Source: a virus
Direction: 5' to 3' (one strand)
DNA: 64,000 nt
Virus record (IMG/VR): IMGVR_UViG_3300034374_012521
Span: 1 to 64,000 of that record
Shown here: positions 27,444-37,582 of the stretch, in pieces
How the letters are laid out: each line of letters opens with the position of its first letter
Position numbering within the stretch: the first letter of the stretch is position 1
Notes under the pieces: generated by a model
Seen by the model: only the letters and a program-made list of their open reading frames with translations
Database searches by the model: none
Told to the model about the DNA's origin: nothing
Program-made: the position numbers and the translations under genes

Positions 27444-27638
27444 GAGGTTCGGTTTAATCCATGTCTTCCTTTGAGGGATGATTATTCGGTCTTCTTAGAA
27501 AATCAGTTCTTTCCCCTTTCTTTTCTTTCTCGTATCCCCATTTGAAGATTTTAAGAACCATAACTAATCCGACCAAGCCGAACATTAGGATAAGGGAAAG
27601 TAGTGGAAAATCAATCATTGTTTTTAAGTTTTTATTAG

Positions 27639-27710
27639 TAGCCCCGCCAGGAATCGAACCTGGATCAAAAGTTTAGGAAACTCCCATTCTATCCGTTGAA
27701 CTACGGGGCC
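27639..27710 (-). tRNA. tRNA-Arg(CCT)
   Basis: Cloverleaf GGCCCCG.../TTCCTAA loop/GGTTCGATTCC. Confidence 0.9.
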
Positions 27711-27713
27711 AAT

Positions 27714-28367
27714 TTAATTTTTTCTAATAACCAAGAAAATATCATCTATTGTAGAAATGTGACCTGCCCTAATATAGTTTTTTTTGACAATCTCTAGAGA
27801 ATTTTGGTGACAGAACTTCACAAATCTTTCCTCGTCAAAATTTGCCCTTCCATCCACGTTTTTAAACGATAGATCATCACCACCAACTAGGTTAGAAAGG
27901 TGCAAAGAGCAGTACCCATTATTCTTAAGGACCCTTTTTATTTCCGACATGTATGAAATAACAACTTCAAAGTGCATATGAACAAAAGAATCGTACGAAA
28001 ATACAAAATCTAGAAAATTGCTGGGTATCATATCCAAGGATTTACCATCGGTGACAAAATAGCCAGAAACCCTTTTACCGAATCTTTGAGCACACCTTGA
28101 GATACAGGTTTCATTTAGGTCTGCAACATACAGATGATTTATTTCGGGACATCTTTCAAGAACTTCGTTGGTCATTCTGCCAAACCCGCAAGCTATTTCC
28201 AATACATTTCCCTTTGCAAATGGAGATATGTGCGGATCTAGATTCTGCTCCCAGGTATAGTCAATACCTCTTTTATGAGTCCATTCGTTACCATCCGATA
28301 TCCAAGAGCTCTCAGAATTCCAGTGTCTTTGCTCCTCTATATTGATATTAATTCTATCGTCCGACAT
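27714..28367 (-). CDS. class I SAM-dependent methyltransferase
   Basis: VLEIACGFGR, DFVFSYDSFVH, RVLK..G. Confidence 0.88.
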   Translation of the reverse strand: MSDDRININIEEQRHWNSESSWISDGNEWTHKRGIDYTWEQNLDPHISPFAKGNVLEIACGFGRMTNEVLERCPEINHLYVADLNETCISRCAQRFGKRVSGYFVTDGKSLDMIPSNFLDFVFSYDSFVHMHFEVVISYMSEIKRVLKNNGYCSLHLSNLVGGDDLSFKNVDGRANFDEERFVKFCHQNSLEIVKKNYIRAGHISTIDDIFLVIRKN

Positions 28368-28387
28368 GCTTGTGTTCTAAAGATAAT

Positions 28388-29065
28388 CTAAATATAAGAT
28401 TTTCTGAATAAAGAAATCACATCCTTTGCGTCATCAACAGCATCATGTGTTACTATCTTGTCCAATCCAGCCCTTTCTTTACAAAGGCTTAAACCCGGGA
28501 GTGATGTGTCGTTTTTCCAATCGGTAAATAACACGCTTGGATCTAAAACCCTCTGTCTGATTCTAATTAATTGTTTCCACCTAGGGATCCTAACTAAAAA
28601 TTTCATATCGAAAGTAGCGAAATTTTTCCCAGCTGCAGATATTGTGATTGGTTTAGTTTTGTTTGTAATTGCTGGTAGCATTTTTCCATTTCTCCTCGTG
28701 ATATAACCACCAGATCCAGGATCACCTAGATCAACGAAATCATTCTCTGCTAACCAATAATAGAATTCCTCTGCAACATCGTGCTCATTCATGAATTTCA
28801 TGCCTGTGAGTCTTTCAAGATCAAATATTTCACTATCATCTTCAGCTGTTTGGTAATGAACAATAGATTCGATGATTTCTTTGTTCATGTTAATTGCATA
28901 GGGTGATCCCTCGATTCTTTTGTGCAAAATAGCTGCATGGAAGGTTGGAAGATCCTCCATGGGTTTAATGTTGTTGGTGTCTTCGATGACTGCACCAATT
29001 GTGAGGATCTGACAATTTTCCGGGTCAAGTCCTGTTGTCTCTAAATCTATACTTATATACTTCAT
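28388..29065 (-). CDS. DEDDh 3'-5' exonuclease
   Basis: IDLETTGL, GKN...FD, THDAVDDA. Confidence 0.88.
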   Translation of the reverse strand: MKYISIDLETTGLDPENCQILTIGAVIEDTNNIKPMEDLPTFHAAILHKRIEGSPYAINMNKEIIESIVHYQTAEDDSEIFDLERLTGMKFMNEHDVAEEFYYWLAENDFVDLGDPGSGGYITRRNGKMLPAITNKTKPITISAAGKNFATFDMKFLVRIPRWKQLIRIRQRVLDPSVLFTDWKNDTSLPGLSLCKERAGLDKIVTHDAVDDAKDVISLFRKSYI

Positions 29066-29074
29066 ATACTTTAT

Positions 29075-29398
29075 TTAAGACCCTACTTTTTTCGAAGATG
29101 TGTGGTTGCTGCGAATCAGTATTTCAACCTCCCTATCATCTAGGATCCCCGAAATTGGCTCTTCTTGTTCCTTCCAAGATTTATATTGCGGAACATAGTT
29201 TCCTTGCATCACAATCTCGTATTTAGAACCTTCATTTATAACTTCATATCTTATTAAAATACAATATGGGCTTGGAAATGATACCGTCTTAACGTCGATT
29301 ATGCTATCGTCGGTTTTCTTAATTTTCTTTTGAGCAATCCTATTTACCCACTTCCAAAATTTGTTCTTAGTGGGATTTCCGATAATTTTAAACTGCAT
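29075..29398 (-). CDS. hypothetical protein
   Basis: Start moved downstream of the terminator at 29471-29496. Confidence 0.5.
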   Translation of the reverse strand: MQFKIIGNPTKNKFWKWVNRIAQKKIKKTDDSIIDVKTVSFPSPYCILIRYEVINEGSKYEIVMQGNYVPQYKSWKEQEEPISGILDDREVEILIRSNHTSSKKVGS

Positions 29399-29470
29399 AA
29401 TATCAAATGATTGGTAATTCTTTCTATTTGCAATTATATTAATGTTTCCCGTATTGAAAAAACGAAGCAT

Positions 29471-29496
29471 AAAAAAAGGTCTCAAAATTGAGACCT
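29471..29496 (-). terminator. intrinsic terminator
   Basis: AGGUCUCAA/UUGAGACCU hairpin + U-run. Confidence 0.75.
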
Positions 29497-29522
29497 AAAA
29501 ATAAACAGGGGTCCTAAATTTT

Positions 29523-29714
29523 CTAGATGAAAAGTATTAGATCACCGAAAGAATCCCAATCTCCACTATCTTTTTCCGGTTTTTCTTCATCAACGGAGTC
29601 ACTATCTGAAATTTCGGAATAGTAATCACCCTGTGATTGGTAGTTTGGTAGGTAAAATTGGTGGTCGCTTGCAGATTTTTTTTCTTGGTTGTTTTGGGAA
29701 GGGGGTTGGCTCAT
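29523..29714 (-). CDS. small low-complexity acidic protein
   Basis: 63-aa ORF followed by a terminator. Confidence 0.45.
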   Translation of the reverse strand: MSQPPSQNNQEKKSASDHQFYLPNYQSQGDYYSEISDSDSVDEEKPEKDSGDWDSFGDLILFI

Positions 29715-29787
29715 TTTTTGGGAGTGGATTTTCTTTTATTTATCTTTTGATATTAATTTTTTTAATTGTAATACACTCACAAATATA

Positions 29788-30246
29788 TTAATTATTTGTT
29801 TCCAACACAACAACGGTATCGGGCATAATTAGCGGTCTAATCTCCAGATGTGAAGATTCCCCCGTGACTGGCTTTCTAGTATAACAAAAGACAGGCTTAC
29901 CGTCAGTATCATAATAAAAGTATTCCTTAGTTCTGTCATCTAGAAAGGCCCTGTACATCCCATTATTCTCGTCAACGTAAATGATCTGTCCCGATTCAGT
30001 ATCACTCCTTAAGCCAATGGCAAAAGTTTTTTTCTTATTAGAACGTTCCTCCTCATATTCATTTATGTGCTGCTCGATTCTTTGAATTGATGATTGTATA
30101 GATTCATATTCTTGAACTAACTTATTCAAATTGGAAGCATAGCTAAATATTGGGCTCATATACCCAATAAGTGTCACAATTGTACCAATAGCTGTAACGA
30201 TGAAAATGACATTACTAAACTTGGATTTAAACTGGGTGAGAGGCAT
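29788..30246 (-). CDS. membrane-anchored hypothetical protein
   Basis: N-terminal TM then coiled coil; TATATA motif upstream. Confidence 0.6.
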   Translation of the reverse strand: MPLTQFKSKFSNVIFIVTAIGTIVTLIGYMSPIFSYASNLNKLVQEYESIQSSIQRIEQHINEYEEERSNKKKTFAIGLRSDTESGQIIYVDENNGMYRAFLDDRTKEYFYYDTDGKPVFCYTRKPVTGESSHLEIRPLIMPDTVVVLETNN

Positions 30247-30295
30247 TTGACAAACATATATTTACATTATATATTCTGAATTTATACCAAAAGAG

Positions 30296-30369
30296 AGGCA
30301 CAGATTGGATTCGAACCAATGAATAGCGGGTTTGCAATCCGCTCCCTTAGACCACTTGGGTACTGTGCC
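30296..30369 (-). tRNA. tRNA-Cys(GCA)
   Basis: GGCACAG/CTGTGCC-T, loop TTGCAAA. Confidence 0.92.
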
Positions 30370-30519
30370 TTATGCAGGTACAGGGGTTTGTATTTTAGAA
30401 CCGGATGGAAGTTGGGCTCTTGCTAATTCTTTTGCAATTATAGAATTTGGTGCTTCGATATAAAGCCTTAGTGAACCGCCTAAACCAGTAGGTAAAATAT
30501 AGTCAACCCTGTATTTCAT
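30370..30519 (-). CDS. small hypothetical protein between tRNAs
   Basis: MKYRVDY... 49 aa, start outside tRNA-Leu. Confidence 0.5.
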   Translation of the reverse strand: MKYRVDYILPTGLGGSLRLYIEAPNSIIAKELARAQLPSGSKIQTPVPA

Positions 30520-30534
30520 TTCATAATTAATTAG

Positions 30535-30620
30535 TAGTCCGGGCGGGACTCGAACCCGCACGGGCATTACTGCCCAAAAGATTTTAAGTCTTTCATGTCT
30601 ACCGGTTCCATCACCGGACC
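30535..30620 (-). tRNA. tRNA-Leu(TAA)
   Basis: Long variable arm, loop CTTAAAA. Confidence 0.92.
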
Positions 30621-30655
30621 AACTTATACAAATCTGATAAAGTACTGGAAAATGC

Positions 30656-31525
30656 CTAAGATTTTTTCTGGTAGACTTTTAGATTTCTAATTTCCATTCT
30701 ACCTTCAGTAGGCTGATTCTCACCATCAGGTTGCTTTAAACCATTATTTAACACTAAATACTGGTCTTGCCCGTTGGTCTTAAGCATCTTTTTATTCTTG
30801 GCAACCTGTACTAGTTGCCCGTCAAAATAGAATTTAATAAAATTATCCGTCCAGTGTATTGCATACTGAACAAATCTTTCTTCTGGGCTTTTGACAAATA
30901 TTCGTGGCGCTCCATAATCTTTTTTACCTTCTTGCCAGGTATTACCGGTTCCCCAATGTATATTAGGTCTCATCTCAATCTCATTCACATCTTGATCTGT
31001 GTATGCCTCGAAGATGTCAATTTCTGGTGGCCATGAGTTTGTACCACTTAACCAAAAAGCGGACCACTGCATTTTTTCGACGGGAAGTTTAATTTCTGCT
31101 TCGATCCAGCCATAGGTAAAAGATCTTTTCGATGAAATAAGACCAGAAGCCCATGGTAAAGTAAATTCATCTGGTAGCTCTGGCTTTTGTTGCCATTTAG
31201 GAAGATCTTTCTTGTAAATTGTTTTTGGTAGATACTTATTCTCTAGAATCAAGCTTTCTCCACTCAAGAAAGTAGCATCTTCGCTCCAATACCACCAAAG
31301 TTGATCTGTGTGAAAAAATCCCCATGGATGTCCATATCTCCATTCTTCTGGATTGAGAGATTCTTCAGTGAAGGAATCCTCAAAAACTATTTCATAACCC
31401 TTTGGAGGGTTTGCCTTTCGTTCCCCAGAAACTTCTTTTCTGGAAAGCATCCATGCTTTAAATTGCAACCAGAAATTGTATAGGTTGTTCCAAGGTGTTC
31501 TTTGGAGATAGTGTTTAAGTACCAT
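30656..31525 (-). CDS. glycoside hydrolase family 16
   Basis: SGLISS...FTYG.IEA, WSAFWL, WPPEIDIFE (ExDxxE). Confidence 0.9.
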   Translation of the reverse strand: MVLKHYLQRTPWNNLYNFWLQFKAWMLSRKEVSGERKANPPKGYEIVFEDSFTEESLNPEEWRYGHPWGFFHTDQLWWYWSEDATFLSGESLILENKYLPKTIYKKDLPKWQQKPELPDEFTLPWASGLISSKRSFTYGWIEAEIKLPVEKMQWSAFWLSGTNSWPPEIDIFEAYTDQDVNEIEMRPNIHWGTGNTWQEGKKDYGAPRIFVKSPEERFVQYAIHWTDNFIKFYFDGQLVQVAKNKKMLKTNGQDQYLVLNNGLKQPDGENQPTEGRMEIRNLKVYQKKS

Positions 31526-31557
31526 AAATTTTATATTTATTTCAATTTATGTATTCG

Positions 31558-31630
31558 CACGCCAGGTAGGATTCGAACCCACGACCCTCGGTTTTGGAGA
31601 CCGGTACTCTACCAGCTGAGCTACTGACGT
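31558..31630 (-). tRNA. tRNA-Trp(CCA)
   Basis: Cloverleaf, loop CTCCAAA, G73. Confidence 0.92.
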
Positions 31631-31636
31631 AAATTG

Positions 31637-31719
31637 TTGGCAGGGACGGATTCGAACCGCCGTACTCCAGAGAGAGCAGATTTACAGTCTGCCGCCTTTA
31701 ACCACTCGGCCACCTACCA
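31637..31719 (-). tRNA. tRNA-Tyr(GTA)
   Basis: GCAGA-CTGTAAA-TCTGC, long variable arm; U1-A72 pair. Confidence 0.9.
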
Positions 31720-32411
31720 ATTTTCCTTATTACCAATTTTTGATTAGCATATCTGTGTGGTCCATCTTCAAAGAGATCATTTACAATTTCCCAGTTTGAA
31801 CCGCTTCTTTTGCAATAGTGATAAATCAAAGAACCTTTTCCAAAGATCTCGTGTTCAACCTCAAATTCTCTTTTCTCGATAACTTCACCACCACTAAAGA
31901 TGTTCCAGTAAATAAAAGTTCCCCTTACGAAATTGTCATCTATTATGATATAGGAACCTTTTTCCATCTTTCCTTCAATAGCTTTGAATTCCAAAAAGGT
32001 GTGAAGCATGGAAGGCTCTGGGTTGTAGATATCAAAATCCCACGAATCCAAATGTACAATTGTTGGTGATCCTTCATAGCTCATAAGAAAATCCACAGAG
32101 TCCATGGTTAAATTTACCAGTTCATCAAAATCCGGGAGGTGATCTTTATAAAGCTGAATGCTTCTGGATGAAATGTCTTCATCTACATCAATGGAGGAAA
32201 ATTTACCACCATGCTCTTTAGCCAAATGAGCAAACAAAAGTCCAAAGCATCCATCATCAAAAGATTGGCTTGCTCCGGTTTCTATAACCTCAATTGATTT
32301 TAAATGGCTTAGTTCTATAATATCCGAGATCCTTTGAGCTTGATCTTTTCTTTGATTGCTGACTTGTTCAAGGCCCTTATAAAAATCCAAAGACGGTTTC
32401 CAACTTCTCAT
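31698..32411 (-). CDS. class I SAM-dependent methyltransferase-like protein
   Basis: VIETG, SIDVD, DSVDFL, HLDSWD, IIIDD; true start at MRSWK because the longer ORF runs into tRNA-Pro. Confidence 0.75.
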   Translation of the reverse strand: MRSWKPSLDFYKGLEQVSNQRKDQAQRISDIIELSHLKSIEVIETGASQSFDDGCFGLLFAHLAKEHGGKFSSIDVDEDISSRSIQLYKDHLPDFDELVNLTMDSVDFLMSYEGSPTIVHLDSWDFDIYNPEPSMLHTFLEFKAIEGKMEKGSYIIIDDNFVRGTFIYWNIFSGGEVIEKREFEVEHEIFGKGSLIYHYCKRSGSNWEIVNDLFEDGPHRYANQKLVIRKIGRWPSG

Positions 32412-32425
32412 AATAAAATTATCTG

Positions 32426-32498
<73 letters not shown>

Positions 32499-32501
32499 AA
32501 T

Positions 32502-32687
32502 TTATTTTAAAGCTTTTTTAGATCTCTCTGCTAACCAAACAGCTCCTTGAAGCTTAAATTCTTTCCAATTGTCAAATTCTTTGAGATCCTCTATGACACT
32601 CTCAGGCAATAGGATAAATCCCTCGGGAGCAATTCCCTGGAACTTGTAATATCCCGAGTTTTCTATTTTTTCTTTAATGTTAGACAA
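32502..32687 (-). CDS. small hypothetical protein
   Basis: 61-aa ORF with TTG start between tRNAs. Confidence 0.5.
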   Translation of the reverse strand: MSNIKEKIENSGYYKFQGIAPEGFILLPESVIEDLKEFDNWKEFKLQGAVWLAERSKKALK

Positions 32688-32706
32688 TTGAATTAATTTA
32701 TTTTTG

Positions 32707-32780
32707 GGCCGGAGGTGGGAATCGAACCCGGCGTCACGGTTAGTTTTAGCTAACTTGCTCTACCACTGAGCTACTCCGAC
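32707..32780 (-). tRNA. aberrant tRNA-like element (anticodon undetermined)
   Basis: Good acceptor stem and D-arm, TTCGATT loop; 6-nt anticodon loop CTAAAA and mismatched T-stem. Confidence 0.6.
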
Positions 32781-32782
32781 TT

Positions 32783-32858
32783 TGGAGCGGAAGACGGGAT
32801 TCGAACCCGCGGCCCTCAGCTTGGAAGGCTGATGCTCTACCAACTGAGCTACTTCCGC
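32783..32858 (-). tRNA. tRNA-Gly(TCC)
   Basis: GCGGAAG/CTTCCGC-TCCA, loop CTTCCAA. Confidence 0.93.
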
Positions 32859-32863
32859 TTTTG

Positions 32864-32937
32864 CTCCCCCACCTGGGCTCGAACCAGGGACCTATTGATT
32901 AACAGTCAACCGCTCTAACCAACTGAGCTATGGAGGA
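32864..32937 (-). tRNA. tRNA-Asn(GTT)
   Basis: TCCTCCA/TGGGGGA-G, loop CTGTTAA. Confidence 0.93.
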
Positions 32938-32981
32938 ATATAAAGGTCCGGGCCCAAAAAGGGCCCTTTTGAAGACCTTAG

Positions 32982-33054
32982 TTGCGGGAGAAGGATTCGA
33001 ACCTCCGACCTCCAGGTTATGAGCCTGGCGAGCTACCTCTGCTACCATCCCGCG
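32982..33054 (-). tRNA. tRNA-fMet(CAT)
   Basis: C1:A72 mismatch, CGCGGG start, loop CTCATAA. Confidence 0.88.
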
Positions 33055-33063
33055 ATATAATTA

Positions 33064-33168
33064 AAGGAAGGGAAATCTGGCGAGTACTTGTATTTGCCCG
33101 TTTCACACCGGTACCAAGCCTCCCGTCTTTTTCCAAATCCTTGCCTCTGTGAATAAGCACCCTTCCTT
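33064..33168 (-). ncRNA. candidate ~105-nt structured RNA in the tRNA array
   Basis: Spacer closed by a perfect 9-bp terminal stem AAGGAAGGG/CCCTTCCTT. Confidence 0.45.
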
Positions 33169-33170
33169 AG

Positions 33171-33242
33171 TTGCCCCTGCTGGACTCGAACCAACACTGA
33201 CGGAACCAAAATCCGCTGTCCTGCCAATTAGACGAAAGGGCA
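33171..33242 (-). tRNA. tRNA-Gln(TTG)
   Basis: TGCCCTT/AGGGGCA, loop TTTTGGT. Confidence 0.9.
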
Positions 33243-33248
33243 AGATTG

Positions 33249-33322
33249 TGGGCCCAGCAGGGCTCGAACCTGCGACCTACTGATTATGAGTCAGTTGCTC
33301 TAACCAACTGAGCTATGAGCCC
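33249..33322 (-). tRNA. tRNA-Ile2(CAT) (lysidine type)
   Basis: GGGCTCA/TGGGCCC-A acceptor typical of Ile2, loop CTCATAA. Confidence 0.8.
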
Positions 33323-33329
33323 AAAAAAA

Positions 33330-33380
33330 CAGGATGCTTTTTAAATATTTGCTGTATCAAAAAGTTGCTGTATGCATCCT
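33330..33380 (-). ncRNA. AGG-stem/UACAGCAA motif RNA, tRNA-array copy
   Basis: AGGATGC-ATACAGCAA...ATACAGCAA...GCATCCTG; same architecture as the copies at 38321-38571. Confidence 0.6.
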
Positions 33381-33385
33381 TTTAG

Positions 33386-33467
33386 TACCGAGGGTCGGAC
33401 TCGAACCGACACACCATAAGGCGCTAGATCCTAAGTCTAGTGCGTCTACCAATTTCGCCACCCCGGC
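33386..33467 (-). tRNA. tRNA-Leu(TAG)
   Basis: CTAGA-CTTAGGA-TCTAG, variable arm. Confidence 0.93.
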
Positions 33468-33661
33468 ATTTGCAGGATATCGCTTAACCTGCGGTGAGTG
33501 TTCCTTTCACCTTGTTCTCTTTAAGAAATACTTCGGGTCTTTCAGGGTTTCTGATAGATGATTCGTTTGTTATGTGATTACTCCAAACCCTTTTTCTTCA
33601 TTCTAACATCATCATCTATTACAGCTTCACTGTATCTCTTTCCGATACTACGATTTTTTTG

Positions 33662-33748
33662 CGGAGAGAGTGAGATTCGAACTCACGATACCGTTTCCAG
33701 TACACTACCTTTCCAGGGTAGCACAATCGACCGCTCTGTCATCTCTCC
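33662..33748 (-). tRNA. tRNA-Ser(GGA)
   Basis: GGAGAGA/TCTCTCC-G, loop CTGGAAA, long variable arm. Confidence 0.92.
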
Positions 33749-33750
33749 TG

Positions 33751-33838
33751 TGGCGGAGAGGGAGGGATTCGAACCCCCGGTACGTTGCCGTACGCCAGTT
33801 TTCAAGACTGGAGCATTCGACCACTCTGCCACCTCTCC
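33751..33838 (-). tRNA. tRNA-Ser(TGA)
   Basis: GGAGAGG/CCTCTCC-GCCA, loop CTTGAAA. Confidence 0.93.
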
Positions 33839-33937
33839 GTATTCGGTTTTGTTCCACATTAGCCCTACCACACAGTGGACATGGGTAGGATTTTGACTAA
33901 GGTGCTCTGAAGAGCTTTACACCGAAAACCTGATCAG

Positions 33938-34010
33938 AGCCGCTGGAGGGACTTGAACCCCCGACAGGCTGATTACAAATCAGCTACTCTACCAGCTGAG
34001 TTACAACGGC
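33938..34010 (-). tRNA. tRNA-Thr(TGT)
   Basis: GCCGTTG/CAGCGGC-T, loop TTTGTAA. Confidence 0.93.
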
Positions 34011-34024
34011 TTTTAGGCATTTTC

Positions 34025-34041
34025 CAACATGTCAAAGAACT
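34025..34041 (-). promoter_or_regulatory. boxA-like antitermination element
   Basis: AGTTCTTTGACATGTTG just upstream of the first tRNA; resembles rrn boxA (GYTCTTTRACA). Confidence 0.55.
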
Positions 34042-34132
34042 GTTTGATTATTTGTCTTTTTTACATCCAGCAGGATATTATGTTTCCATACAAAAACACA
34101 AATAATTACATTTTTTCTCCTCTCAGAGTTTG

Positions 34133-34547
34133 TGGAGCTGGTGGGATTCGAACCCACGTCCAGCTAGGCACACCCAGAGAATCTCATTCACAGGCTTAGG
34201 TCATTTTTCTAAATAACCAAAATAGAAAGGTTTCATATATGTGGGAATCAAACCTATCGAAAGTACCTGGTCTCAGAGTTGGTTTAGACGGGCTCTGACC
34301 TGTGACCCGCATACTCCAGATCAACCATCGGAAGATCTAGACTTTCGACTTTCTGTTCCTAGGGAGTCGACCCCCGGTGCTTAGGCTGCAAGAGCAACTT
34401 CAGCGGTTTCAACAGAACCTAGTCCTGCCAAAACGAAAAATGGATTTTCGCCATTTGAAGTGTTACATAGGTTATTAAAGAGTTTCCAATGCTAACTCTG
34501 CCTGCAATTCAAAGAACGTTCGCCTCCTGTCGATTCCAGTCAGCCCC
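34133..34547 (-). ncRNA. ssrA: tmRNA
   Basis: 5' GGGGCTGACTGGAATCGAC; 3' GTGGGTTCGAATCCCAC-CAGCTCCA with G3.U70; internal tag ORF ending ALAA-stop. Confidence 0.96.
34381..34452 (-). other. tmRNA tag reading frame GENPFFVLAGLGSVETAEVALAA*
   Basis: Translation of 34452->34381; resume codon inferred from Bacteroidota GEN... tags. Confidence 0.8.
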
Positions 34548-34559
34548 ATTTCTGTTCAG

Positions 34560-34567
34560 CAAATTTA
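34560..34567 (-). promoter_or_regulatory. Bacteroidota-type -7 promoter box (TAAATTTG)
   Basis: Matches TAnnTTTG ~13 nt before the tmRNA 5' end; overlapped by the inverted repeat TTAATCT/AGATTAA. Confidence 0.45.
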
Positions 34568-34599
34568 ATCTTTGTAAGAGATTAAAAAAACTGAGATAT

Positions 34600-34633
34600 A
34601 AAAAAACCCAAATCTTTTGAGGGATTTGGGTTT
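34600..34633 (-). terminator. intrinsic terminator (attenuator terminator)
   Basis: AAACCCAAAUC/GAUUUGGGUUU hairpin + U-run. Confidence 0.8.
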
Positions 34634-34662
34634 AGATATATCTAGACTTCTTCTAAAACTAA

Positions 34663-34746
34663 CTATCTAAACCCGCAGGGTAAGTTATACCCTGTTGGGA
34701 ACGAACCCAACGTCCAAAGACACGATATTTGTTTAAATAGTTTCAT
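34663..34746 (-). CDS. putative leader peptide MKLFKQISCLWTLGSFPTGYNLPCGFR
   Basis: 27-codon ORF between a promoter motif and the terminator; last codons are complementary to the terminator 5' arm. Confidence 0.6.
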   Translation of the reverse strand: MKLFKQISCLWTLGSFPTGYNLPCGFR

Positions 34747-34767
34747 TCTAGATGAAGATTATGGTAA

Positions 34768-34795
34768 TTATATATCAAAGGACAAAAAAGTTTCC
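34768..34795 (-). promoter_or_regulatory. putative promoter GGAAAC-N13-GATATATAA for the leader/tmRNA/tRNA unit
   Basis: Contains both recurrent upstream motifs of this genome. Confidence 0.55.
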
Positions 34796-34834
34796 GCTTA
34801 TTCCGCTGTTTTATTAAGAAAATGAAATCCCGTA

Positions 34835-35950
34835 TTATTTCGACTCCACAAAGTATCTAAGTTTAGAGAATTCCAAAAACCTGGATGTATCTATATCATA
34901 CTCATCATGAGACAGCATTCCATCACCATCCAAGGATTCTATCGAGAACAAGAATCTAATTTTACCTACTCTCCAGATAGCATCTGGAATTTTGTACCAA
35001 GCCCATCCGCCATGGCTTAGTGTGTTGCTTTCCTCCATCATTAATTCACTCCCACATAGAAGTTTGAATTTAATTCTAACTAATGAAAATGGAGAATCCG
35101 AGCTTAAATGTAGAAGTATTCTTATATCACTAATATTATCCTTATTTACGTATGGGGAACACACAGAAGTTGTGTAAAGAGTGTATTCGTTCTTGTTATA
35201 TGCTAGCTTATCAATATCCCAATTTTCCCCAATTGGACCTCCGAAAAAATGGTCCAACTCATCGTTGGACTTAAAGATGGAATTCTCCCTTCCTGTGTTA
35301 GCGATGGAAGTTATGAAATCCTCAAAAACCATGTTCGGATATTTAGATACGAAATCTCTATTTTTCCTAATATTGAGATTGGGTATAAGGGATCTAACCC
35401 GGGAATTCATTCTCAGTATAAAAAGATGACTGTATACCCAATGAGATCTTGGGACTGAGAAAAAAATAGAGTCTAGATCCTTTCGTAATAATTCTTCCAG
35501 GAAAGAATTAATTTTTTTGCCAAAATCCTTAGGGAATATAAAGTCAGTTTCCATATAAACACAAAAATCATACCCCTTAGCAAAAGAAGCACCCAAAGAG
35601 GGGATAAAGAGGGATACAATAGCAGGAGTAAAATCTATCCAGCCTTTATAATCATAATATAAGGTAGATCCAGAAGGACCCTCTGTATCAACCCACTTGT
35701 AGCTAGGTATGTTTTCTACTAACGGTACAATTTCAGGGTTGAGAATATTTGAATCTTTAAAAGCAGATGTGTTGGTGTCGTTATAGAGGTAAAGGTCCAC
35801 CTTGTTTTTTATGCTGTCTGGGCAATCAAAGTGTGTCATTAATGTAACATCCCACCCAATACTCTTAATGGAAGAGATTATCTCAAGAAGATCCTTTTGT
35901 TTTTCTTCAGTGCTTGGAAATGATGATAATATAAAGTTACAATCTATCAT
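34835..35950 (-). CDS. hypothetical protein, possibly glycosyltransferase-like
   Basis: Lies in a glycan gene block; THF and YMETD (ExD) motifs. Confidence 0.5.
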   Translation of the reverse strand: MIDCNFILSSFPSTEEKQKDLLEIISSIKSIGWDVTLMTHFDCPDSIKNKVDLYLYNDTNTSAFKDSNILNPEIVPLVENIPSYKWVDTEGPSGSTLYYDYKGWIDFTPAIVSLFIPSLGASFAKGYDFCVYMETDFIFPKDFGKKINSFLEELLRKDLDSIFFSVPRSHWVYSHLFILRMNSRVRSLIPNLNIRKNRDFVSKYPNMVFEDFITSIANTGRENSIFKSNDELDHFFGGPIGENWDIDKLAYNKNEYTLYTTSVCSPYVNKDNISDIRILLHLSSDSPFSLVRIKFKLLCGSELMMEESNTLSHGGWAWYKIPDAIWRVGKIRFLFSIESLDGDGMLSHDEYDIDTSRFLEFSKLRYFVESK

Positions 35951-35962
35951 AGATGGATTAAA

Positions 35963-37582
35963 CTAGTTGGCGAACACATTGGTAATAGTGTCATTTTTCC
36001 TCCTGGAAATTATATAATCTTCAGTTGCAATATAATCAAGAGAATCGTCGAGTAGATGTTTAATGACCTGGTGTGGATAATTATTAATAGGTTCCCCATG
36101 AGCATTTAATGAAGTATTCAGAACAACCGGGATTCCAGAAATATTATGATATGCCGAGATCAATTTATGAAAGTGTGGGTTTCTTTCCTTGTTTACTATC
36201 TGTGGCCTTGCTGTACCGTCTTCTGCATGTACAACTGCTGGTATTCTACCGAGCCATTCTTCCCTTGTGTCGTAGCACAAAGTCATAAATTCAGCAGTGT
36301 GTTTTGATTTCTCAATATGGAAAACATCTTGGCTGAATTCTTCTAACACCGAAGGGGCAAAAGGCATAATCTCGGTTCTTCTGAGCTTTTCATTAAGCCT
36401 TCTGTGTGTATCTTTATCAGTTGGCTTTACAACTATACTTCTATTTCCTAATGCCCTTGGACCATATTCTGTTCTTCCCACGAATACTCCTACAACTGAT
36501 CCTTCATCTACGAGTTGTGCAACCCTTTCGTATGTCATAGGTTCGGTTTTCAGATTCCCCTGGTTTTCACTAATGATAGAATCCCATGCTTCCCTACTAT
36601 GGCTTTCTCCAAGGAAAGCATTCTCGAGTCTAAATGACTCCGTTATTTCTCCAAGATCGTTTGCAACTTTAATTGCTGCACCCAGAGCTAAACCACTGTC
36701 AGACATTGCTGGGTGAATGTAGATTTCATCAAAAAGACCCAAATCGTTAATAAACATATTCATCTTAACATTTGCAAAGAGTCCACCAGAAAAACATATT
36801 TTTCTGTATTCGGGGAACCTTCTACTAAGGTCTTCGAGGAAATCCCTCATAGTTTCATCTGTTACCTTCTGAAGGGCAAAAGCAAAATCCGCCCTCAACT
36901 GCTTATCAGTAAAAACACCACGGGGCTTGAGAATATGTTCGCAGATATAGTGGAACCTAGCTTCGTGATTTGCAGGGCGAAAGTTCAGATCTCCACCATA
37001 ATGTATACAGTCCTTTATCAGCTTGTAGATCATCTCGTCGTGTCTACCATGAGCAGCCAAGCCAACTATTTTACCCTCATCCTTAAGCATCTTCCATCCT
37101 AGGTGTGTACAAGAAGATGCCCAAAGTCCTGCTAAAGATGCAGTAGTTGGAATGTGTTGTGAATGCACCACCTCATAATCCCCATCCTCGCAAAGCAAAA
37201 TTTTTCCTCTACTCCTGTTGCCTTTGCCGTCGTGGGAAACACTAAGAACTTTGCCTTTCATCCCAGAGGTAAAGTATGATCCAAGGGTGTGAGATAAGTG
37301 GTGTGATACCTCAGTTGTTCTTCCCATAAAGAACCCAATGTTCTGTTTAACAATCTCCTTTTTATAAAATGAAGAGATTGCGAAATAATCCACATTCGAA
37401 AGATCAATACCGTGATCCCTCTTTACCACTTCAAGACAATTGGTTGGGGGGGCAAGTACATTATAACAGGATTTTATCCCAGTAAGCTTTTCTTCCTCAT
37501 AAATTCCAAGTATTTTACCATCTTTTAATACAGCAACAGAAGTGTCGTGCGAGCAAAAACCAATTCCTAAAATAATACTCAT
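35963..37582 (-). CDS. carbamoyltransferase (NodU/CmcH family)
   Basis: HDTS, EEEK, HHLSH, DGKG, EGKIVGLAAHG, EYGPRALGNRS, MPFAP, NTSLN.HGEP. Confidence 0.93.
   Translation of the reverse strand: MSIILGIGFCSHDTSVAVLKDGKILGIYEEEKLTGIKSCYNVLAPPTNCLEVVKRDHGIDLSNVDYFAISSFYKKEIVKQNIGFFMGRTTEVSHHLSHTLGSYFTSGMKGKVLSVSHDGKGNRSRGKILLCEDGDYEVVHSQHIPTTASLAGLWASSCTHLGWKMLKDEGKIVGLAAHGRHDEMIYKLIKDCIHYGGDLNFRPANHEARFHYICEHILKPRGVFTDKQLRADFAFALQKVTDETMRDFLEDLSRRFPEYRKICFSGGLFANVKMNMFINDLGLFDEIYIHPAMSDSGLALGAAIKVANDLGEITESFRLENAFLGESHSREAWDSIISENQGNLKTEPMTYERVAQLVDEGSVVGVFVGRTEYGPRALGNRSIVVKPTDKDTHRRLNEKLRRTEIMPFAPSVLEEFSQDVFHIEKSKHTAEFMTLCYDTREEWLGRIPAVVHAEDGTARPQIVNKERNPHFHKLISAYHNISGIPVVLNTSLNAHGEPINNYPHQVIKHLLDDSLDYIATEDYIISRRKNDTITNVFAN

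Follow-up and report, generated by a model that had tools for sequence, protein, structure and literature searches.

The locus considered here raises the question of what a 27-codon open reading frame (ORF) does at the head of a block of phage tmRNA and tRNA genes, and whether its codons are set by the tRNAs that follow it. The stretch of DNA analysed, hereafter the window, is the first 64 kb of one 118,056-bp phage contig (37.8% G+C). A sequence-only reading had proposed that the ORF encodes a leader peptide whose codon content mirrors the phage tRNA set, acting as a multi-codon survey leader rather than as a sensor of a single amino acid. Current discussion of phage tRNA genes treats them as a supplement for codon usage and as a way to escape defences that cleave tRNAs, and the control of their expression is hardly addressed in the passages cited here (PMC10264068, PMC11464382, PMC11555353). 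A search of the full-text literature, with a scope outside subscription journals and supplements, found no report of leader-type control of phage tRNA or tmRNA genes. If the reading favoured below is true, the phage gauges how well decoding proceeds and produces spare translation RNAs when they are needed. A caution also follows from the locus, as a striking 13/13 match in one genome is not carried over to its nearest relatives.

Locus, gene order, and phage tRNA set

The features of the locus are collected in Table 1. At Rfam gathering scores, the window holds no family besides tmRNA and tRNA; the tmRNA was detected by Rfam and missed by ARAGORN. In relatives, ARAGORN reads a 23-residue tmRNA tag, GENPFFVLAGLGS..AEVALAA, which is rich in Ala, Glu, and Val, residues absent from both the leader and the tRNA set. 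The optional segment between the T-run and the tmRNA is found at the same place in loci L007 and L010, is missing from L013–L018, and differs in L024.

Table 1. Coordinates of the features of the locus within the window
Feature	Position	Strand	Content or basis
Carbamoyltransferase gene	37582..35963	-	Pfam PF16861 and PF02543
Gene for a 371-residue protein of no known family	35950..34835	-	between the carbamoyltransferase gene and the leader ORF
Putative promoter region	34768..34795	-	GGAAAC at 34795..34790, a spacer, and GATATATAA at 34776..34768
Leader ORF, 27 codons and TAG	34746..34663	-	MKLFKQISCLWTLGSFPTGYNLPCGFR*, by translation
Single Trp codon (TGG) of the leader	34716-34714	-	
R2, putative antiterminator 5' arm	34664..34674	-	GGGTTTAGATA; last three sense codons and first two stop-codon bases
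R3	34628..34638	-	TATCTAAACCC; pairs with R2; AAACCC in common with the terminator 5' arm
Intrinsic terminator	34600..34633	-	11-bp stem AAACCCAAATC / GATTTGGGTTT, 8-nt loop, then T-run; terminator scan
Optional segment of about 50 nt	34548-34599	-	small hairpin; between the T-run and the tmRNA
Phage tmRNA gene, first gene past the putative switch	34130..34547	-	Rfam RF00023, 88 bits, model positions 1-374 of 374
16 tRNA genes with ORFs in between, downstream of the tmRNA	27638..34010	-	ARAGORN, Rfam
CAT tRNA, other	33248-33322		
CAT tRNA, initiator-like as read here	32981-33054	-	C1/A72 mismatch
tRNA with 6-nt anticodon loop	32706-32780	-	ARAGORN call '?(Leu|Phe)(aa)'

ARAGORN finds 16 tRNAs in the window, and a list made over the whole 118,056-bp contig returns the same 16, all inside the window. 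The first eight are Thr-tgt, Ser-tga, Ser-gga, Leu-tag, two CAT tRNAs, Gln-ttg, and Asn-gtt; the remaining ones are Gly-tcc, an odd one with a 6-nt anticodon loop, Pro-tgg, Tyr-gta, Trp-cca, Leu-taa, Cys-gca, and Arg-cct. The counts exclude the weak calls that ARAGORN makes when its threshold is relaxed. The amino acids served are Arg, Cys, Leu, Trp, Tyr, Pro, Gly, Asn, Gln, Ser, Thr, and Met, with Ile only if one tRNA is of the Ile2 kind. One CAT tRNA carries its mismatch at the top of the acceptor stem, which we take to mark it as initiator-like, and the other could be an elongator Met or an Ile2 tRNA. Ile is counted only with this second CAT tRNA as Ile2; otherwise the overlap with the leader is 12/12. 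The tRNA with the 6-nt loop occurs at the same array position in L007–L009, L011, L016, and L018, and a Phe(aaa) call is given there in L010 and L025.

Shine-Dalgarno sites precede 13 of 115 phage genes against a background of 14%, which is no enrichment, and positions -11 to -8 ahead of the start codons are A-rich (predicted genes, whole contig). Both features fit a Bacteroidota-type host, to which the phage may be provisionally assigned. Since phage genes are generally without such sites, a leader that lacks one raises no objection.

Related loci and leader types

Relatives were sought in several ways. A blastn search of GenBank phages with positions 33900–35000 gave only tRNA-sized matches and no relative; a search for related viral contigs with the 371-residue protein alone gave none, and neither did an exact 24-nt pattern search of genome contigs. 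Aligned homologues of the 371-residue protein led to 14 metagenome loci and one viral locus, and DNA patterns led to L022/L024 and L026. Of the loci neighbouring a related carbamoyltransferase, L001 has 92% identity, but the contig stops short of the leader; L002–L004 were not used. L011, L012, and L019/L020/L025 are duplicates of L010 or of the related contig G002 and were downweighted or dropped. Further duplicates are L008 and L009 (L007 type), L014 and L015 (L013 type), and L016–L018 (the window's own type, WIN). The viral contigs L021 and L023 do not belong to the system and enter none of the counts; they share a related tmRNA 5' end, with no leader or terminator upstream. By eye, the upstream stretch of L021 is tRNA-like and the stretch directly upstream in L023 is protein-coding-like. 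In effect, the loci amount to about three or four independent lineages, and several arrays end at contig ends.

The leader types are given in Table 2. A 26–28-codon ORF is kept in the four leader types of the window clade, and the order of the 371-residue protein gene, leader, terminator, tmRNA, tRNA-Thr, and tRNA-Ser is kept in L007–L016 and L018. L017 gives no tRNA or tmRNA match, yet a leader of the WIN type and the 5' start of the tmRNA are present. The device also recurs in L024 and L026, where the leader peptides are unrelated. In L005 (2390–5400) and L006 (3415–6400), about 3.2 kb are inserted between the 371-residue protein gene and the leader, whose body is unrelated to the window's, yet has 27 codons and a G-F-x-R end. 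Additionally, there is exactly one Trp in every leader. The next residue is often Thr or Ser (LWT, NWT, IWT, NWT in L024, IWS in L026), with IWG in L005, and the distance from Trp to the stop codon varies among leaders. The single Trp may be an arrest-type motif or may be due to chance.

Table 2. Leader types, the amino acids they share with their tRNA arrays, and codon tests made against each phage's own codon usage
Leader type	Loci	Peptide	tRNA amino acids in leader	Non-tRNA amino acids in leader	All codons	Synonymous choice
WIN	window, L016–L018	MKLFKQISCLWTLGSFPTGYNLPCGFR	13/13	2/7	17/26, p=0.009	11/15, p=0.10
L010	L010–L015	MKHLNQISCIWTLGFYPTGKDHFGFR	12/12	5/8	14/25, p=0.012	9/11, p=0.011
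L007	L007–L009	MKHLNQISCNWTSGSYPLKDNPRFGFR	10/10	7/10	14/26, p=0.010	8/9, p=0.003
L005	L005, L006	MQSLKLTYNSFDSNTPSIWGNSHGFGR, 27 codons				
L024	L022/L024	MIHSQTYSYFASQDKGNWTPKVTRVCVS, 28-codon ORF unrelated to the window's	13/14	5/6	p=0.19	8/9, p=0.013
L026	L026	46 residues, all 20 amino acids	15/15	5/5	p=0.29	p=0.43

Putative promoter, antiterminator, and terminator

The GATATATAA motif ends 22 nt before the leader ATG. The promoter block is kept in L005–L018 and L024, and a looser form is seen in L026; in five leader types (26–28 or 46 codons), the ORF starts 14–22 nt past the motif. Over the whole contig, GATATATA occurs in 19 copies on the coding strand versus 3 on the opposite strand, and about eleven copies stand roughly 19–26 nt before a gene ATG (by eye from the listing). 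Example sites in the window are 62351, 58720, 56957, 54430, and 48146. This motif is probably the phage's own promoter class.

The R2:R3 duplex of the window has an energy of -16.5 kcal/mol, and the duplexes among the sequences compared range from -11.2 to -17.9 kcal/mol. Set against 5000 random 24-mers, the chance value is 0.0002 for the window and 0/5000 for both L007 and L010; against random 24-mers it is 0.0002 for L013, 0.0016 for L024, and 0.019 for L026. Moreover, the equivalent of R2 overlaps the stop codon or ends at most 6 nt from it in L007, L010, L024, and L026, and the distance from the stop codon to R3 is 27–33 nt in all six sequences measured (6/6). The arms of L024 are GGGTTTGTG and CACAAACCC, which differ from the window by three base pairs with both partners altered, and in L026, R2 copies another part of the terminator 3' arm. 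The terminator hairpin of the window has an energy of -13.1 kcal/mol, and a terminator is kept at 20 of 30 loci. A trp-like region 1 that pairs with R2 was not significant (R1:R2 duplex P = 0.12–0.98); minimum free energy (MFE) folds of the window, L007, and L024 nonetheless draw an R1:R2-type helix. In L013–L018, the gap from the T-run to the tmRNA is only about 16–20 nt, so a separate tmRNA promoter would have little room there.

In an RNA library, a 510-nt contig with 4 differences covers positions 34229–34738, which include part of the tmRNA, the terminator, and nearly the whole leader; as an assembled contig whose ends and strand are not shown, and for which DNA carry-over is possible, it falls short of proving a single transcript. 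The bins at 34751–35000, in the upstream gene, are without cover in four RNA runs, which counts as no evidence. A short X16 contig over 34601–34656 has gaps and probably comes from a relative.

Overlap between the leader and the tRNA set

In the leader MKLFKQISCLWTLGSFPTGYNLPCGFR, 15 kinds of residue occur; A, D, E, H, and V do not. Translation and ARAGORN together bear out what the sequence-only reading had stated, namely that these 15 amino acids include all 13 with a phage tRNA (12/12 without Ile) and that the five absent ones (Ala, Asp, Glu, His, and Val) are all without a tRNA on the contig. By strict wobble, the phage tRNAs read 18 of the 27 leader codons; the codons not read are AAA and TTT (twice each), TTC, CTT, GGT, CCC, and AGA. 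The corresponding share is 40.6% of codons in 115 long phage ORFs (p=0.009 minus the start codon). The leader is made of 23 distinct codons among its 27, none of which is used more than twice, and no codon is repeated in a run. The ORF contains a T-arm-like hairpin that might be a tRNA remnant; Rfam gives no tRNA there at gathering score.

How rare such an overlap is depends on the comparison. All 13 tRNA amino acids occur together in 28 of 30757 27-residue stretches of the phage proteome (0.09%), in 2299 of 300000 ORFs simulated with the trinucleotide frequencies of the coding strand (0.77%), and in one of 119 natural ATG ORFs of 25–29 codons in six frames, the one being the leader itself. 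The rarity had earlier been put at about 0.001; the pattern is indeed nominally rarer than chance, but matching for composition makes it some 8-fold less extreme, and its recognition was post hoc. The overlap is confirmed as real, with a nominal chance value of 0.1–0.8% for a pattern picked out after the fact.

Comparison of leaders with their arrays

Across the leader types, the amino acids of the tRNA array are almost always found in the leader (Table 2). In L024 and L026, this near-complete coverage arises because the leaders are diverse overall. With 15 kinds of residue, the window leader is unremarkable (P = 0.39–0.48; 0.39 against proteome stretches). Against proteome stretches, the leaders of relatives are unusually varied, with 17 kinds in both L007 and L010 (P = 0.05 and 0.04), 18 in L024 (P = 0.015), and 20 in L026 (P = 0.013), and it is this high diversity that recurs. 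The further idea that residues without a tRNA are left out of the leader fits only the window (2/7) and breaks down in the other types (5/8, 7/10, 5/6, and 5/5).

Among close relatives, the L007- and L010-type leaders use His and Asp codons, with arrays near-identical to the window's. G002 (90.9 kb, CheckV 32% complete) has 14 RF00005 matches, and no His or Asp tRNA is among those typed in a 10-kb stretch; a Pro tRNA was also not found in this 32% complete contig, and its leader keeps a Pro codon. Likewise, a Gly tRNA was not found in the available part of the L007 array, and the L007 leader keeps a Gly codon. The L024 array has Ala, Asp, Glu, Lys, and Phe tRNAs, of which the leader has Ala, Asp, Lys, and Phe, but not Glu; its His, Val, Ile, Arg, and Cys are without a tRNA in the part of the array before the contig end. 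When each leader was set against each array, no preference for the own array appeared, in a matrix where a locus or contig end truncates the arrays of L007, L024, and L026. For instance, the window leader reaches 18/27 on its own array and on that of L024 alike, and the L024 leader exceeds the baseline more on the window array than on its own.

A weaker correspondence is nevertheless seen at the level of codons. By eye, the choice of Ile codon follows the array, with ATA beside the CAT tRNA and ATT twice beside the GAT tRNA of L026, and AGY Ser codons are present in L024, which has Ser-gct. The codon tests combined over the window, L024, and L026 give p of about 0.02; with the discovery lineage excluded, the combined value is 0.21 for all codons and 0.035 for synonymous choice. 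Furthermore, the L005-type leader, at 42% nucleotide identity, has a 17/26 match to the WIN-type array (p=0.009–0.035); the available sequence of L005 and L006 stops short of their own array, and these two loci enter only this codon comparison. A modest bias toward codons read by the phage tRNAs remains. The exact match, in which 13/13 are present and the five absent residues are without a tRNA, is mostly a feature of one leader variant. Of the survey-leader proposal, the part that stands is a multi-codon leader free of codon runs, as opposed to a single-amino-acid sensor; the part that finds no support is the mirroring of the tRNA set, in view of the His and Asp codons of relatives and the swap matrix. 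The claim that can be defended is that of a broad-sampling leader, not of a mirror of the array.

Proposed mechanism and rival explanations

The ORF is best read as the leader peptide gene of a putative ribosome-read transcription attenuator that heads the tmRNA/tRNA block, a reading to which we give a probability of roughly 0.6. Anatomy, conservation, complementarity, and one bridging RNA-library contig are the observations behind it, and from them we infer promoter use, translation of the ORF, and the switching itself. Transcription would start at the phage promoter (GATATATAA), about 15 nt ahead of the ATG. The last codons of the leader and its stop codon would serve as the antiterminator arm R2, and the partner arm R3 would compete through the AAACCC that it shares with the terminator 5' arm. 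A ribosome that reaches the stop codon would cover R2, the terminator would form, and transcription would end. If the ribosome is slow, stalled earlier, or absent, R2 would stay free, R2:R3 would form, and the polymerase would read into the tmRNA and the tRNAs. Being free of codon runs and sampling many amino acids, the leader would act as a broad gauge of decoding speed; and as there is no supported region 1, an untranslated RNA would, unlike that of classical attenuators, read through by default. This default counts against the reading, as do the unremarkable 15 kinds of residue in the window leader, the small number of independent lineages, and the truncated arrays.

One use of such a device would be counter-defence. 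If any one host tRNA species were lost, for instance through an anticodon nuclease, the ribosome would stall before R2 and the replacement tRNAs and the tmRNA would be turned on, with a codon set selected to cover the replaceable tRNAs; the roughly one-codon-each design is the reason why any single loss would suffice. This trigger is put forward tentatively, as a rather doubtful extension of the attenuator. A rival reading is a tuned sensor, with leader codons that co-evolve with the phage tRNA repertoire and read-through on a shortage of exactly the replaceable tRNAs. Such tuning would explain the near-constant presence of the tRNA amino acids (13/13, 12/12, 10/10, 13/14, and 15/15), the codon match to the own array in the window clade (p=0.009, 0.012, and 0.010), and the synonymous choice in the window (p=0.10), L010 (0.011), L007 (0.003), and L024 (0.013), as well as the 17/26 match of the diverged L005-type leader to the WIN-type array and the Ile and Ser codon choices that by eye follow some arrays. 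However, exclusivity fails beyond the WIN variant (5/8, 7/10, 5/6, and 5/5), there are His and Asp codons for which the phage has no tRNA, Pro and Gly codons are retained where the tRNA was not found, and L024 has a Glu tRNA with no codon for it in the leader. Leaders gain nothing from their own array in the swap matrix, the all-codon tests give 0.19 in L024 and 0.29 in L026 (combined 0.21 minus the discovery lineage), and synonymous choice in L026 gives 0.43. We consider tuning of this kind unlikely.

Two further readings dispense with an attenuator. The ORF could simply encode a small functional peptide, expressed from its own promoter and ended by its own terminator, in which case the tmRNA and tRNAs would come from unregulated read-through or from another promoter. 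The motif Q-I-S-C-x-W-T-x-G-x-[FY]-P and the G-F-R end are indeed kept via synonymous changes in the clade (among leader types, third-position changes dominate, with 4 synonymous codon changes per pair over 19 codons), a single Trp occurs in each leader, and the terminator is good. Yet the WIN, L005, L024, and L026 peptides are unrelated, whereas ORF position, length, and stop-in-R2 geometry are kept; the R2:R3 complementarity with its two-sided changes would have no role, and a PHROG scan of the leader peptide gave no family match (best E=0.051, treated as no match). This reading appears improbable. A chance ORF, in a structured non-coding leader or in the 3' UTR hairpin region of the upstream gene, would make the amino-acid overlap coincidental. 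A 27-codon open frame is not rare at this composition, the overlap statistic was noticed post hoc, and the window RNA is strongly structured, with an MFE fold of -56.2 kcal/mol. Shuffles yield a promoter-proximal ORF that ends at R2 in 7.5%, 4.1%, and 1.7% of cases in three lineages, 7.5% being the window's; but the geometry recurs in unrelated lineages, and the product of the three chance values is about 5e-5. Moreover, the leader frame is the sole open frame in the five types tested (L005/L006 lay outside this test), indels keep the frame (26, 27, and 27 codons), and the spacing from the promoter motif to the ATG is as at real genes. A structured RNA with a chance ORF was dropped because the hairpins inside the window ORF are not kept in L007 or L010, and coincidence is rated very improbable.

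Comparison with known systems

The amino-acid operon attenuators of enterobacteria, such as trpL, hisL, pheL, thrL, and the multivalent ilv leader, are the classical systems of this kind. The putative attenuator resembles them in its short promoter-proximal ORF, in the mutually exclusive antiterminator and terminator with one strand in common, in that the position of the ribosome at the ORF end would decide, and in the intrinsic terminator before the regulated genes. It differs from them in several respects. The phage leaders have no regulatory codon runs, and each of the 15–20 kinds of amino acid that they sample appears about once or twice. The device is phage-borne, and its output would be stable RNAs (tmRNA and tRNAs) instead of enzymes. 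Additionally, it has no significant region 1, and its no-translation state should read through. The T-box riboswitch binds uncharged tRNA directly and needs no ORF. Like the T-box, the phage device would couple tRNA status to a choice between terminator and antiterminator, but through an ORF.

Attenuation through a translated leader and slowed ribosomes is also described for the mef/mel(msr) resistance genes (PMC4335068). Leaders of that type rely on drug-bound ribosomes and specific arrest peptides, whereas no drug link was seen for the phage leader. The nearest analogue in logic is the upstream ORF (uORF) of mycobacterial whiB7, at which stalling is believed to give antitermination and which is activated by knock-down of many tRNAs, tRNA synthetases, and amino-acid pathways (10.1101/2023.06.02.543512). 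Like it, the phage leader would serve as a broad gauge of translation stress. What the whiB7 uORF senses depends on its coding sequence, which is specifically rich in alanine, and the gene under its control encodes a transcription factor (10.1101/2023.06.02.543512). In contrast, Ala is absent from the four leader types of the window clade, and the phage output would be tmRNA and tRNAs.
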